Shown here: piece by piece, positions 1-19,859 of the stretch
How positions within the stretch are numbered: position 1 is the stretch's first letter
Layout of the letters: each line of letters opens with the position of its first letter
Source of the DNA: an uncultured delta proteobacterium
GTDB taxonomy: Bacteria; Myxococcota_A; Polyangia; Haliangiales; Haliangiaceae
Reading direction: 5' to 3'
Length of the DNA stretch: 64,000 nt
Assembly: GCA_963764695.1 (NCBI GenBank)
Contig: CAVXTW010000015.1
Span: forward strand, 285,845 to 349,844
The notes under the pieces: model-generated
Database searches by the model: none
What the model was told of the DNA's origin: nothing
The model's input: only the letters and a program-made list of their open reading frames with translations
Made by a program: the position numbers and the translations under genes

Positions 1-446
1 ACCAGGGCCAGATCAACCTGCAGGGCATCAACGTGGTCCGCGTCTTCGGCAAGTCCGGCCGCGCGATCCTGTGGGGCGCGCGGACGACGGCCACCGACAC
101 CAACTGGCAGTACGTGAACATCCGCCGGCTCTTCCTCTATGTCGAGGAGTCGATCCAGGAGGGCATCGCCTGGGCCATCTTCGAGCCGAACAACCTCCAG
201 CTGTGGCAGAAGCTCAAGCGCACGCTCAACGAGTTCCTGGAGCGAGTCTGGCGCGACGGCGGGCTCTTCGGCGCGACGCGCGAGGAGGCCTGGTACGTGA
301 AGATCGACGAGACCATCAACCCCTTCTCGGAACAGGCTCTCGGCCGCCTGCACATCGAGATCGGACTCCGCCCGACCTATCCGGCGGAGTTCATCGTGGT
401 GCGCATCGGCATCTGGCCGGGCGGCAGCGAAGTCACCGAGTCCTGA
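1..446 (+). CDS. Contractile tail sheath protein, C-terminal fragment (5' end outside window)
   Basis: Open in frame from position 3 with a stop at 444-446. The C-terminal sequence (TTATDTNWQYVNIRRL...WYVKIDETINPF) is typical of phage/eCIS sheath proteins, and a tube gene follows immediately. Confidence 0.8.
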   Translation, partial: QGQINLQGINVVRVFGKSGRAILWGARTTATDTNWQYVNIRRLFLYVEESIQEGIAWAIFEPNNLQLWQKLKRTLNEFLERVWRDGGLFGATREEAWYVKIDETINPFSEQALGRLHIEIGLRPTYPAEFIVVRIGIWPGGSEVTES

Positions 447-469
447 ATCCCCACGCCCCGGAGATAGAA

Positions 470-907
470 ATGGCAACCGGCCAGGTCAAGGACCCCTACG
501 GCAGCTTTCGGTTCACCGTCGAGATCGACGGCATCGTGCGCGCCGCCTTCAAGGAGTGCACCGGCTTCGACTCCAGCTGCGAGGTGAAGGAGTTCCGCGA
601 GGGGGGCGAGAACACGACGGTGCGCAAGCTTCCCGGGCTCACCAAGTACAGCAACATCCAGCTCAAGTGGGGGTTGTCCGACGACAGGGACCTCTACGAC
701 TGGCACCGCGAGGTGGTGAACGGCGACTTCGAGCGCAAGAACGGCTCCATCGTGCTCTTCGATCGCAAGGGCGACGAGGTGGCGCGCTGGAACTTCGTGC
801 GCGCGTGGCCGACCAAGTGGGACGGCCCGGACCTCAATGCGGAGACGAGCGACATCGCCATCGAGCTCATCGAGCTCGCCCACGAAGGCATCGAGCGAGC
901 CAGCTGA
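470..907 (+). CDS. Contractile-tail tube protein (gp19/Afp1/Afp5-like)
   Basis: 145 aa starting MATGQVKDPYGSFRFTVEIDG, the conserved phage tail tube motif. Internal ATG at aa 134 of ORF 71..907. Sits 24 nt after the sheath stop. Confidence 0.9.
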   Translation: MATGQVKDPYGSFRFTVEIDGIVRAAFKECTGFDSSCEVKEFREGGENTTVRKLPGLTKYSNIQLKWGLSDDRDLYDWHREVVNGDFERKNGSIVLFDRKGDEVARWNFVRAWPTKWDGPDLNAETSDIAIELIELAHEGIERAS

Positions 908-16469: not shown

Positions 16470-16484
16470 GCCGGAGTCCCTGAC

Positions 16485-19400
16485 GTGGCCGATCGGGGGA
16501 ACAGCCGGACGGTGGCCACGAAGGCGGGCGACGCTTCGGCCGGCAGCGCCCGGCCACCGCCGTCTCACGCAAAGCCCGAGGCCGCCGACCGCGCAGCCCT
16601 TCAGCGAGCCCTGGGCAACCGGGCCATGGGTCAGCTCGTTGAGACGGCCGCGCTGCCGGGCATCATCGATCCCGACGGTCCGCGCGCACTCAGGACCGCA
16701 GCACTGCTGAGGCGCCTCGGCGCCGACCTGGGCCTCCACGCCGGCGACGTCGAGATCCGGGCCGACGCCGAGGCGGCTCGACGAAAGCACAGCTGCGCCT
16801 GCGGCGGTTCCGCGAGTCTCGGCGGCTCGTGCGAGAGCTGTCAGGCTGCACGCTCCTCAGGCAAGCCGCTCCAGGCCAAGCTGAACATCAACGCCCCCGG
16901 CGATCAGTTCGAGCAAGAAGCGGACCGCGTGGCCGAGCAGGTCCTGCGCATGCCGGACCGAGTGGCTGGCGAAGCGAAGCCGTCCTCCCCTGCGCCAGAG
17001 CTGGTGCAGCGACGGGTCGGCTCCGGCGGCGCAGGCATCGCACAGGCGCCCCCGGTCGTTGACGAGGTGCTGTCGTCACCGGGCCAGCCCCTCGATCCTG
17101 CCACACGCGCGTTCTTCGAACCTCGCTTCGGGCACGACTTCGGGCGCGTGCGTATCCACGCCGATGCTGAGGCCGCAAGATCCGCACAAGCGATCAACGC
17201 CCTGGCGTACACCGTGGGATCGGACATCGTGTTCGGGAACCCACGCAGCTCGCCCGATTCGAGCGACGGACGCCATCTTCTGGCCCACGAGCTCAGCCAT
17301 GTCGTGCAGCAGGCTGATTGGGCAGGAGCGGCCCCACCTCCACTCCAGAGGCAAGCCGGGCCGGAGTCACAAGATTCATCGGCACAAACCGTGGACGACG
17401 ACCTTCTGAGTCAGGCGTCCGACTTTCTTTCTAGCTTTGAAGAGTTCAGAGATCTCGCATCCTCCTACGAGACATCAGACTCATCAGTCGAGTCTCGCCT
17501 CAGGGTAGCTCTCGCCCTCTTCGATGAGCGATGGCGCTCCATGGACTATCACGATGCGTTTGGCGCCAGCGCCTTTTATGGCCTCTTCTCCATGGCGCAG
17601 GAAGCTCTGGCGCTCTTTGAGTTGCGGGTCTCCGAACTGGAGAGCCTCTCTGACACCGCTGACCTTTCTGACATCCGGAACGGGCTCGACCGCCTGGGAC
17701 GCCAGCTGTCCGCGCTGCAGGGAGCCGGTTCGATGCGCGGCCAGGCCCAGCGAACCGAGCTGGCCAGGGAAGCGCGAGCGGCCGAGGCGCTGGCCCTCGA
17801 ACACACGCCGGAGGGGCGGCAGAGCACCGCCCTGACACACCTTCGGACCTACGTCCAGGATCATCCGCCGAACACGGGCAAGGCGGGCGTGAGCGTCTAT
17901 GCGAACCAGCTAGGGCGCTACCTGGTGCACGAACAGAACCTGAGCGGATCCGAGATCCAGGCGGTCCTCGAAACGATAAAAGCCGACGACCCTGACCTCT
18001 TCGATCGTGCCCTGTATCAGGGCGAGCTTCTCGTCTACCTGCTCGAGGAGGGCGTGACCGGGTTGGATGTCGAAAGCCTCCTGTCCGACAGTGGAAGCGA
18101 ATCCGAAGGTGCGCCAGCCCACGTCAGTGGCGCCGGATTCTATGCAGGATTTGATATCTGGTGGCTCGACCAAAGTCAGAAGGATCCTCTCGATCTTCCG
18201 ACTCTGAGATTGCCGAGGCCGGACGAGATAGACGACGTGTTGAAGGGCTTCTATTGGGGGCTCGGAGCGGGCTTCCTCGGGACGTTTGCGGATGCAGCCA
18301 AAGACATCTTGTCAGCGCTGAATCCGACGACGTGGCTGGCCATGTACAAGCTGGTGAGCGAGCAGCTCCCCGACGAGAGGTGGCAGTTCGAGCTGGGACG
18401 GACGACAGCGCTTGCTTTCCACGCCTATCTCAAGGACGTCGCCGACGACAGCCTCAAGGCGGCCATCACGAGATTCGGTCGCGTGATCGGCGCCGCACTC
18501 GCCGAGGTTGCGATGACCTTTCTTGGCGCCAAGTTCGTTGCGTTGGCCGCCAAGGCCGCCCGGGCCACGAAGTGGGGCGCGCCACTGTTCAAATTCGCCG
18601 ACCGCGTGGGCGATGCCCTGCCATGGCGCGACCCACGGGTCGTTGAGAACGACGTCGCGCCGGATTCCGTTCCCGACGAGACACCTGTCAAGAAGGCCGG
18701 TGAATCTTCGAGCACCACGACCTCGTCGGAGGTACCGAGCAGTTTCGAGCTGAGCAACGAACTGGTGACGCCCTCCCAGTCCCTCCAGGAAGCGGCCTAC
18801 ATCGACGCTCATCCGGAGCTGATCGACGTGACGTCGCCGCAGAAACGGGCAAAGGTGGGCGACCACGAGATTGTCGAAATGCGCGACGGCGGGTGCTCAC
18901 GAAATTCCCCGACGCGCAAGTCGGTCCCCTGCCCGGTCTCGTTCGAGGCGCCGCCCGGCAGCGTCACCGTGAAGGCCGATGAGCTCCTTTCGGAGGATGC
19001 GCGTGGTCTCCTGAAGGACCGCTCCGTCGACCCCACTCCCTCAACTCAGGCAGAACTTGACGCCTCGCTGGAACGGACACGCAGTAGCGATGCGGTCGCA
19101 CCAGCAAAGACCACGGATCAGAAGCGGCTCGAACGCGAGGCACTATCACGGGGCCGTATCGCCGACCTGGAGCGCCAGATCGAGAATCTCACGAGGTTGA
19201 GGAACGAATCGGTTAACCAACTAGCTCGATTCAGGGAGGTGCGGGCTGAGATTCTGCGCGCACAACGAGAGGGACGCGCGTATGAAATGCCTGCCGACGT
19301 TCTGGCCATGGACATCGAAACGCCAGCTGAGGTCAATGCGCACATCCTTGGCCTCGGTAGCGAGATCAAGCTTCATAGCAAGTCGATGGCTGCGCCCCAA

Positions 19401-19859
19401 CAGGAACTAAGAATCGAGATCCGCGCCAGTTCGGGAATGACCACAGAACTGGTCAAGCTTCTTCGTTCAAAGACGCCCAGTGACGCTGCCCTGTCGCTTG
19501 TCAAATCCAGATCAGGAGGACGGGACGAGGCCTTTGGCAGCGGCCTTCTGAGAGCGGCCTCTGCCGACCATATTGTTCCGTTTACGGAGATAATAGAAAT
19601 GGACGACTTCGGGGCCTTGGAACTTCACGAGCAAATTGAAGTGCTCAACAATGCTGACAACCTTCAGTATATGAGCGACCTGGCCAACAGCAGTAAGGGC
19701 AACAAGAGATGGCAGGAGTGGGATTCGTCTGCTTACGAGACCGCGAACACTCGTAAAGACCTGAGGAAGGAGATGATCAGGAGGGAGGGCGAGCTGCGTC
19801 AGGCCATCCAGGACGATATCAGCGCCAGGGTTGCCAGGCGCCGTGGCCAAGTAAATTAG
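16485..19859 (+). CDS. eCIS cargo/toxin: N-terminal DUF4157 (HExxH metallopeptidase-like) domain, long variable region, C-terminal HNH-like nuclease motif
   Basis: Canonical DUF4157 block (LQRALGNRA...PLDPATRAFFEPRFGHDFGRVRIHADAEAARSAQAINALAYTVGSDIVFG...HLLAHELSHVVQQ). C-terminus reads ADHIVPF...NLQYMSDLANSSKGNK, an HNH beta-beta-alpha-Me-like pattern. GC is ~55% from ~17340 onward. Confidence 0.85.
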   Translation: MADRGNSRTVATKAGDASAGSARPPPSHAKPEAADRAALQRALGNRAMGQLVETAALPGIIDPDGPRALRTAALLRRLGADLGLHAGDVEIRADAEAARRKHSCACGGSASLGGSCESCQAARSSGKPLQAKLNINAPGDQFEQEADRVAEQVLRMPDRVAGEAKPSSPAPELVQRRVGSGGAGIAQAPPVVDEVLSSPGQPLDPATRAFFEPRFGHDFGRVRIHADAEAARSAQAINALAYTVGSDIVFGNPRSSPDSSDGRHLLAHELSHVVQQADWAGAAPPPLQRQAGPESQDSSAQTVDDDLLSQASDFLSSFEEFRDLASSYETSDSSVESRLRVALALFDERWRSMDYHDAFGASAFYGLFSMAQEALALFELRVSELESLSDTADLSDIRNGLDRLGRQLSALQGAGSMRGQAQRTELAREARAAEALALEHTPEGRQSTALTHLRTYVQDHPPNTGKAGVSVYANQLGRYLVHEQNLSGSEIQAVLETIKADDPDLFDRALYQGELLVYLLEEGVTGLDVESLLSDSGSESEGAPAHVSGAGFYAGFDIWWLDQSQKDPLDLPTLRLPRPDEIDDVLKGFYWGLGAGFLGTFADAAKDILSALNPTTWLAMYKLVSEQLPDERWQFELGRTTALAFHAYLKDVADDSLKAAITRFGRVIGAALAEVAMTFLGAKFVALAAKAARATKWGAPLFKFADRVGDALPWRDPRVVENDVAPDSVPDETPVKKAGESSSTTTSSEVPSSFELSNELVTPSQSLQEAAYIDAHPELIDVTSPQKRAKVGDHEIVEMRDGGCSRNSPTRKSVPCPVSFEAPPGSVTVKADELLSEDARGLLKDRSVDPTPSTQAELDASLERTRSSDAVAPAKTTDQKRLEREALSRGRIADLERQIENLTRLRNESVNQLARFREVRAEILRAQREGRAYEMPADVLAMDIETPAEVNAHILGLGSEIKLHSKSMAAPQQELRIEIRASSGMTTELVKLLRSKTPSDAALSLVKSRSGGRDEAFGSGLLRAASADHIVPFTEIIEMDDFGALELHEQIEVLNNADNLQYMSDLANSSKGNKRWQEWDSSAYETANTRKDLRKEMIRREGELRQAIQDDISARVARRRGQVN

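Follow-up and report, generated by a model that had tools for sequence, protein, structure and literature searches.

A probable extracellular contractile injector with a Tail_P2_I-type baseplate, several fiber-type proteins, and a putative nuclease cargo in a Myxococcota genome

The DNA considered here—64,000 nucleotides from an uncultured delta proteobacterium of the Myxococcota (GenBank assembly GCA_963764695.1, contig CAVXTW010000015.1, positions 285,845 to 349,844; hereafter the window, with a G+C content of ~70%)—opens with a cluster of genes for a contractile injection system (CIS). The cluster belongs to a known, recently catalogued kind of injector, and it is read here, with a probability of about 0.7, as encoding a member of the extracellular CIS (eCIS) superfamily that has a Tail_P2_I-type baseplate and carries out fiber-triggered delivery of a nuclease-type cargo into a target cell. 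Extracellular action is the best-supported mode, and is favored because the set of fibers is conserved and no anchor was found.

At this base composition, mechanical lists of the open reading frames (ORFs) of the window consist mostly of spurious frames; the coding frame along the region was chosen by G+C content at the three codon positions, and starts were placed by position and upstream purine-rich sites. Analysis of G+C content at the third codon position (GC3), together with hidden Markov model (HMM) searches, confirmed the near-complete eCIS operon claimed for positions 1–19859 in an initial annotation of this DNA: 17 co-directional genes form one unbroken array on the plus strand (3–19859), and all but one of them—the gene at 1470–2213—were given a family assignment in Pfam, NCBIfam, or PHROGs (16 of 17). 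With the exception of a tape measure, the roles assigned in the initial annotation were all recovered through profile or structure-database searches. Its description of the gene junctions as mostly overlapping was accurate with respect to the size of the overlaps (1–8 nt; ATGA, GTGA, and TGATG), but not with respect to their frequency, with 8 of the 16 junctions overlapping and the other 8 being gaps of 2–46 nt. The P2-like organization that it proposed is a fair description, in that a chaperone gene is followed by the initiator, hub, spike, W/gp25, J, and I genes, and in that hub and spike are separate, as are the genes encoding gpD and gpV in phage P2. The 17 genes, with lengths in amino acids (aa), are as follows.

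3–446, plus strand: 3′ end of the sheath gene, cut by the start of the window (PF17482 Phage_sheath_1C, E 8.5e-16)
470–907, plus strand: inner tube protein, gp19/Cis1-like (PF06841, E 1.5e-48)
954–1319, plus strand: tail assembly chaperone-like protein, 121 aa (phrog_508 "tail assembly chaperone", E 2.1e-8)
1316–1477, plus strand: DUF6760 small protein, 53 aa (PF20546, E 2.9e-17)
1470–2213, plus strand: low-complexity protein rich in Arg, Ala, Pro, and Val, 247 aa, at the tape-measure position (coding frame by GC3 and by the gene call on contig_53200, described below)
2210–2896, plus strand: tube initiator with LysM domain, Cis7/Afp7-like (PF19266 CIS_tube, E 1.7e-38)
2893–4134, plus strand: baseplate hub, corresponding to the gpD/gp27-like N-terminal part of VgrG, as a separate gene, 413 aa (NCBIfam VgrG_rel, E 1.3e-15)
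4162–4818, plus strand: spike, gpV/gp5 OB-fold and beta-helix, 218 aa (PF04717 Phage_base_V, E 4e-20)
4835–5116, plus strand: PAAR spike tip (PF05488, E 4.7e-20)
5119–5529, plus strand: gp25-like sheath initiator/wedge protein (PF04965, E 2.5e-23)
5526–8525, plus strand: Baseplate_J paralog 1 (J1), 999 aa, with a long N-terminal extension (PF04865, TIGR02243)
8525–10445, plus strand: Baseplate_J paralog 2 (J2), ~639 aa, two ORFs in the window (TIGR02243 end to end on the repaired protein, E 6e-86)
10445–11787, plus strand: fiber protein 1, ~447 aa, shoulder-type N-terminal domain and C-terminal region with HxH motifs (CIS13_fam N-terminal match, E 2e-13)
11791–13839, plus strand: wedge protein, N-terminal NHL beta-propeller fused to a Tail_P2_I/Cis12 core, 682 aa (PF01436, PF09684; CIS12_fam, TIGR02242)
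13858–15666, plus strand: fiber protein 2, shoulder-type domain with an inserted beta-propeller (CIS13_fam N-terminal match, E 2.5e-11; beta-propeller families)
15663–16469, plus strand: fiber-type protein 3, shoulder domain alone, cysteine-rich (first ~100 residues match the NCBIfam CIS13 family)
16485–19859, plus strand: cargo, 1124 aa, consisting of a DUF4157 (HExxH) N-terminal domain, a conserved middle, a coiled coil, and a C-terminal putative His-Me finger (HNH-type) module (PF13699 eCIS_core, E 2.3e-32)

Markers specific to eCIS are present in the form of the CIS_tube/LysM initiator, the PAAR protein, the DUF4157 (eCIS_core) protein, and proteins of the CIS12 and CIS13 families. The features of eCIS membership were likewise found, namely a sheath with a gp19-type tube, a baseplate core, a cap and an ATPase, a DUF4157 cargo, and fibers. 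The cap and AAA+ ATPase are encoded on a metagenome contig, ena:ERZ25039530:contig_53200—99.6–99.8% identical to the window, with 99.8% over positions 1–3517—directly upstream of the full sheath gene, which is where the initial annotation had predicted them to lie relative to the window; precomputed Pfam assignments for the two proteins are PF14065 (Pvc16/Afp16 cap, DUF4255) and PF00004. Sequence searches against solved structures returned CIS throughout, with the CIS of Streptomyces coelicolor (CIS-Sc) giving the best matches; for the full sheath protein on contig_53200 (669 aa), for example, the best solved match is the CIS-Sc sheath (8bky/9gtp, E 3e-90). The membrane complex of a type VI secretion system (T6SS), which the initial annotation had taken to be absent, is indeed not represented: no Pfam family match to TssA, TssJ, TssL, TssM, TssK, or ClpV was obtained among the predicted genes of the window, and no T6SS membrane-complex families are listed on contig_53200 either.

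An identical tube protein is encoded on three metagenome contigs, and the gene order recurs in a Kofleriaceae metagenome-assembled genome (MAG; Myxococcota)—the sole relative in a species-level collection, with 78% protein identity—as well as in ena:ERZ25039494:contig_33897 and a Logan contig; Sorangium sp. So ce542 provides a more distant instance. The shared order runs from the initiator through hub, spike, PAAR, gp25, J1, J2, fiber, NHL-P2_I protein, propeller fiber, and small fiber-type protein to one or two DUF4157 proteins, with the C-termini of the cargo varying among loci.

The baseplate wedge is represented by two Baseplate_J genes and one Tail_P2_I gene. The C-terminal third of J1 matches Cis11 of PDB 9gtp (E 2.6e-46), and J2, once repaired as described below, matches residues 1–648 of the same protein end to end (E 7e-56), with the C-terminal parts of J1 and J2 being ~33–35% identical to each other. 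The Tail_P2_I core of the 682-aa protein matches 9gtp_E (E 1.5e-9), a 190-aa chain present in six copies and taken here as Cis12 from the 2:1 Cis11:Cis12 wedge described in the corresponding paper. The CIS-Sc wedge consists of two Cis11 and one Cis12 subunits, as in R2 pyocin, with its two J-like and one I-like subunits, and unlike in AFP, PVC, and AlgoCIS (PMC12237407). The two J paralogs and one P2_I gene would fit a two-J/one-P2_I wedge stoichiometry, and the two J positions are plausibly filled by the diverged paralogs J1 and J2. The NHL-plus-Tail_P2_I architecture was found, from precomputed domains, in most of the 120 homologs listed, including proteins from Sorangium, Chloroflexota, and Steroidobacteraceae.

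Residues 15–216 of the tube initiator match PDB 7aeb_M, 9gtp_P, and 7b5h_AK (E 1e-19 to 2e-14), and its LysM domain scored below the Pfam cutoff (E 1.4e-3). VgrG is truly divided into a hub gene and a spike gene in this cluster, an arrangement resembling that of P2 gpD/gpV. The spike aligns solely to residues ~340–590, the C-terminal ~40%, of the 530–640-aa Cis8/VgrG/Afp8/Pvc8 proteins of solved CIS (9gtr, 7aef, and 7b5h), and the hub aligns to the part of VgrG-type proteins preceding the spike-matching part, with a match to VgrG 9rce_F (residues 193–366, E 2e-5) and PHROG matches to phrog_52 (tail protein) and phrog_196 (hub). The two genes share a frame and are separated by a TGA, a lower-GC spacer containing GGAGAA, and an ATG. 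The split is real, since it is conserved in contig_33897, a relative at ~80% identity.

Three CIS13-type proteins share an N-terminal domain, with the first ~100 residues of each matching the NCBIfam CIS13 family. Alignment with homologs of 250–290 aa showed fiber-type protein 3 (15663–16469) to be the bare domain, the N- and C-terminal pieces of fiber 2 to align to these insert-free homologs around an inserted propeller of ~350 aa, and fiber 1 to continue from the shared N-terminal part into a different C-terminal region. Five HxH motifs of fiber 1 are found at aligned positions in three homologs, amid otherwise variable sequence; such motifs bind metal ions in trimeric phage fiber tips. The shared domain resembles TssK and All3314 of tCIS, and an AlphaFold model of the bare domain was of moderate confidence (pLDDT 65, pTM 0.63). 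A PDB sequence search with fiber 1 returned nothing useful, and no match to Pfam DUF6519 (eBAP5) was found among the cluster proteins. Tail_P2_I baseplates have been reported to carry TssK-like shoulder-domain fibers (eBAP3/eBAP5, one of which has a domain insertion), with as many as four fibers to a baseplate, and multi-fiber eCIS loci have been found to be enriched in Myxococcota (Nachmias et al., 2026, PMC12923769). In the present case, the three fiber-type proteins and the NHL propeller are conserved across relatives. A simple hydropathy scan detected no strong transmembrane segment in any of the cluster proteins and, in the three Cis13-type proteins, no transmembrane-quality hydrophobic segment comparable to that of tCIS Cis13.

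The last gene of the array encodes a protein with the DUF4157–linker–toxin architecture documented for eCIS cargo (PMC8213781). Its DUF4157 domain spans aa 202–278 and contains an HELSH motif. Residues ~100–720/800 are common to proteins with unrelated C-termini, the last 270 residues are common to few proteins only, and the last 130 residues are found again in 401 representative proteins, of which the 150 listed carry them almost invariably at the extreme C-terminus; proteins carrying this 130-aa module range from 105 to 3452 aa in length. Recurrence of this kind is a hallmark of a polymorphic toxin module, which the C-terminus of the cargo would thus represent, and the fall of the G+C content of the gene to 0.60 is as expected for a shuffled module. 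A D-H..N..N.S pattern is invariant in 31 aligned sequences of the module; the His-Me finger nuclease domain GmrSD_C of Pfam is matched by 10 of these 31 relatives (best E 3.9e-5), and weak matches to GH-E, AHH, and HNH were obtained for single members. The cargo protein of the window itself matches no curated nuclease model. Overall, the C-terminus of the cargo is a probable nuclease. No terminator was detected 3′ of the gene. On ena:ERZ25039494:contig_33897 (14722–21500), two DUF4157 proteins, of 563 and 1163 aa, flank a small Aspzincin_M35-like gene, and this two-cargo locus shows cargo turnover at the 3′ end of the cluster in this lineage.

J2 and fiber 1 each read as two overlapping ORFs in the window, with frame switches at 9158–9161 and 11129–11132, respectively. 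Both are single ORFs in the Kofleriaceae MAG; furthermore, J2 is a single 639-aa ORF on contig_53200, and fiber 1 is a single 451-aa ORF in the MAG and on contig_33897. Base-by-base comparison with contig_53200 showed that the window has one T too many at 9159 and two surplus bases at 11131–11132, and both sites read GATTC—one edit from GATC—in the window and GATC-derived sequence on contig_53200. GATTC occurs only 28 times in the 64-kb window. Of the 63 substitutions between the two sequences, 27 are at GATC, and GTCGAC-like sites account for many of the remainder; the errors run in both directions. Such a pattern is what miscalled bases at methylated motifs would be expected to leave in long-read assemblies. 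The frame shifts are thus read as long-read errors at GATC motifs, and both genes are treated as intact because they are single ORFs in relatives, because the extra bases are absent from contig_53200, and because the errors center on GATC. Pseudogenization and programmed frameshifting of J2 and fiber 1 were rejected in view of the GATTC context, the single ORFs of the MAG, and the contig_53200 sequence without the extra bases. Elsewhere in the window, RtcB (33288–34640, minus strand) is broken over three reading frames, implying two frameshifts; together with the GATC- and GTCGAC-centered differences, this split indicates systematic indel and substitution errors in the window assembly. Such errors may also underlie further overlapping ORFs, at 46383–47030/46930–49161, 49210–50640/50400–51719, and 51706–53484/53481–54686/53818–56322. 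Searches for exact matches to the gp25, PAAR, fiber 1, and fiber 3 proteins returned none, and these failures likely stem from similar errors in other assemblies. As a caution, pseudogene look-alikes in long-read metagenome assemblies can be methylation-motif artefacts.

In the proposed mechanism, the particle would assemble in the cytoplasm on the hub and spike, by analogy with solved systems, with each wedge probably consisting of J1, J2, and one P2_I protein in the two Cis11 positions and the one Cis12 position of the Streptomyces structure. The three shoulder-domain proteins would dock on the wedge as trimers and display their distal domains—an HxH-motif fiber, a beta-propeller, and a cysteine-rich knob—with the NHL propeller of the P2_I protein as a fourth. 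The DUF4157 protein would be loaded as cargo, and release would probably occur via lysis of the producer. Binding of the fibers would then trigger sheath contraction, with the tube, spike, and nuclease being driven into the target cell. Several points weigh against such an extracellular injector. The particle, its release, and its target are predicted from gene content; no holin or endolysin adjoins the cluster, and the sigma-54 promoter-like sites upstream of it, described below, show total matches at chance level. Structural modeling did not confirm the predicted toxin fold, an AlphaFold2 model of aa 851–1124 being mostly coiled coil and a Foldseek search of this model against the PDB returning nothing. 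No immunity gene is found 3′ of the nuclease-type cargo, an absence reportedly common among eCIS toxins (PMC8213781). Finally, CIS-Sc, the closest solved homolog, acts within the producer cell.

The last of these points leads to a different and, on balance, unlikely explanation: a cytoplasmic CIS that, like that of S. coelicolor, fires inside its producer and has a role in development or regulated cell death. The sheath, J2, initiator, and P2_I core are all closest to the CIS-Sc structures (8bky/9gtp), and the absence of a lysis cassette, and of an immunity gene beside the cargo, would suit such a system. So would the position of the cluster beside a sigma-54 enhancer-binding protein, a class of regulator much used in the development of myxobacteria, which are multicellular and lyse during that process. 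However, CIS-Sc is without fibers and is dependent on the membrane protein CisA (PMC12237407), whereas the three fiber-type proteins and NHL propeller conserved in the relatives of the present cluster would be sensible only if something were recognized; moreover, no bitopic membrane protein was seen at the CisA position, just 3′ of the baseplate genes, in a hydropathy scan, CisA itself not having been searched for by sequence. The fiber-type proteins could also be viewed in another way, with one of the shoulder-domain proteins serving as the anchor, rather than a fiber, of an injector that is fixed to the producing cell and fires outward, in the manner of T6SS subtype iv or the thylakoid-anchored tCIS. 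The resemblance of the shared domain to TssK and All3314 points in this direction, as does the finding that in tCIS the fiber-like Cis13, with its C-terminal transmembrane helix, is the membrane anchor (PMC8894136). Such a system is nevertheless given only a slim chance, since none of the three proteins has a transmembrane helix like that of tCIS Cis13, since neither TssJ/L/M nor any other envelope-complex family was matched among the predicted genes of the window, and since an eCIS-type cap and AAA+ ATPase are present. Slimmer still are the prospects of a myophage tail module that is defective, or of a cargo-free R-type tailocin killing by puncture of the membrane. Although the order of chaperone, hub, V, W, J, and I is P2/Mu-like and the tail assembly chaperone is of phage type, family scans of predicted genes revealed no capsid, portal, terminase, integrase, or lysis genes in the 64 kb or on contig_53200 (29.75 kb), and the full set of eCIS-specific markers is there, comprising DUF4157, the Pvc16 cap, the AAA+ ATPase, and the CIS_tube/LysM initiator.

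Among named systems, CIS-Sc (PDB 9GTP/8BKY), the locus of which is type IId of Chen et al. (2019) as cited in PMC12237407, shares with the injector described here a cap and AAA+ ATPase and a Baseplate_J and Tail_P2_I wedge rather than Afp11/Afp12, and neither has a recognizable tape measure, CIS-Sc having been reported without a tape-measure gene (PMC12237407). The differences concern the wedge, in which one Cis11 is used twice in CIS-Sc, whereas two J paralogs (999 and ~639 aa) are found here; Cis12, with 190 aa there and 682 aa with an NHL propeller here; Cis8, a single 643-aa protein there and separate hub and spike genes here; and target engagement, with no fibers and a need for CisA there, and three fiber-type genes and no CisA-like membrane protein at that position here. 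The cluster is also like the Tail_P2_I multi-fiber eCIS loci (PMC12923769), in which fiber genes adjoin the Tail_P2_I and Baseplate_J genes and several fibers occur per locus, and its fibers are like eBAP3/eBAP5, an assignment made by description only, in having an N-terminal anchor with the TssK/receptor-binding protein shoulder fold and one variant with a domain insertion. AFP, PVC, AlgoCIS, and tCIS (PDB 6RAO, 6J0N, 7AEB, and 7B5H) have in common with it the sheath, tube, LysM initiator, spike, PAAR, gp25, Baseplate_J, cap, ATPase, and 3′-terminal cargo, but show much lower similarity and have an Afp11/Afp12 heterodimer wedge and a fused VgrG; in addition, AFP and PVC have several sheath paralogs, and AlgoCIS and tCIS a cage/crown. 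The phage P2 tail and R2 pyocin resemble it in their separate hub (gpD) and spike (gpV), in having a tail assembly chaperone 5′ of the baseplate genes, and in the W-J-I order, the order of the wedge genes in P2. The cluster has no head or lysis genes, and it contains PAAR, a DUF4157 cargo, an AAA+ ATPase, and a Pvc16 cap, none of which is present in P2 or R-pyocins.

This locus adds a well-resolved Tail_P2_I multi-fiber injector of Myxococcota, with complete parts and with near-identical and related loci available for comparison. The diverged J pair, the split of VgrG into hub and spike, and the four different putative recognition modules per baseplate are leads for structural work, and engineered delivery particles could draw on the fiber modules and DUF4157-nuclease cargo as candidate parts.

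The genes between the tube and initiator are less readily assigned. The chaperone-like protein (954–1319) gave a weak Pfam match to Gp41_Mu (E 0.04), and PDB sequence searches with it and with the DUF6760 protein returned nothing useful. The DUF6760 gene overlaps the chaperone gene by 4 nt and lies in its −1 frame, which is open from position 914, with its own ATG within the ATGA overlap. The arrangement recalls the chaperone frameshift products of phage tails. A programmed −1 frameshift fusing the two proteins was considered and set aside, the frames being compatible but no canonical slippery heptamer being seen. The tape-measure-like role proposed in the initial annotation for the 1470–2213 protein had position as its sole basis and was rejected, the protein having no match in Pfam, NCBIfam, or PHROGs.

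The region upstream of the window was reconstructed from contig_53200, on which the genes, listed from the sheath outwards, are as follows.

Pvc16_N cap, 312 aa
AAA protein, 549 aa
Winged-helix protein
ORF of 72 aa
Sigma-54 activator

The 147-aa winged-helix ORF (contig_53200 4877–5320) is directly 5′ of the 549-aa AAA ORF (5352–7001) and in a different frame, for a joined length of ~696 aa; the two may be a single Afp15-like ATPase gene split by an error in the contig assembly. Two sigma-54 promoter-like sites are found just 5′ of the 72-aa ORF and the winged-helix gene, in a scan whose total of matches was no higher than chance. Expression of the cluster is probably controlled by the adjacent sigma-54 activator. 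Two further genes follow the cargo gene in the window.

20110–22143, minus strand: tetratricopeptide repeat (TPR; MalT-like) protein, convergent with the cluster (PF17874, E 9e-6, below cutoff)
22176–23066, plus strand: alpha/beta hydrolase (PF00561, E 1.5e-18)

Contig_53200 is 29,753 bp long. Its positions 2964–19547 are collinear with window 6484–23065, where the similarity ends, and its last 3,516 bases match window 1–3517, such that it starts at the equivalent of window 3521 and finishes at that of window 3517. The contig is thus a circular permutation of the injector cassette together with the TPR and hydrolase genes, with the TPR gene lying between the cargo gene and the sigma-54 activator. 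It joins the 3′ flank of the hydrolase (window 23065) to the sigma-54 activator, whereas the window runs on into a gene for an extracytoplasmic function (ECF) sigma factor. No integrase, att sites, tRNA genes, or long repeats were found at the boundary of the 29.75-kb unit. A circular molecule could explain the permutation, as could a tandem duplication that the assembler had collapsed or an artefact of assembly. That the cassette, from sigma-54 activator to hydrolase, exists in the population as a 29.75-kb circle or tandemly amplified unit is a tentative proposal and more doubtful than not; if true, the cassette would be an excisable or amplifiable injector island without a recognizable integrase. 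Just outside the boundary of this unit, the ECF-type sigma factor gene (23216–24049, plus strand) is beside a gene for a ChrR-like cupin of anti-sigma type (24065–24643, minus strand).

Ordinary chromosomal functions are encoded in the remainder of the window, among them sigma-54 activators, a Ser/Thr kinase, the ECF sigma factor, a protein with a beta-lactamase fold, a Rieske oxygenase, and a pair of YcaO/nonribosomal peptide synthetase-like proteins. An 844-aa protein encoded at 30749–33283 (minus strand) gives strong matches to major-vault-protein domains (MVP_shoulder, E 2.6e-24; Vault_3, E 3e-11). Its gene lies immediately 3′ of, and on the same strand as, RtcB; the sigma-54 activator RtcR (34633–36234, plus strand) is divergent from it, and genes for three large proteins without a Pfam match follow it, likewise on the minus strand (29063–30625, 26209–28857, and 25158–26309). 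These genes may form an RtcR-controlled vault-like/RNA-repair operon. A full-text literature search combining "major vault protein", RtcB, and bacteria returned unrelated papers only. Finally, 49210–56322 (minus strand) is a possible small biosynthetic cluster, encoding a YcaO cyclodehydratase, an adenylation–peptidyl carrier protein–reductase protein, a class-III aminotransferase, and the Rieske ring-hydroxylating oxygenase.

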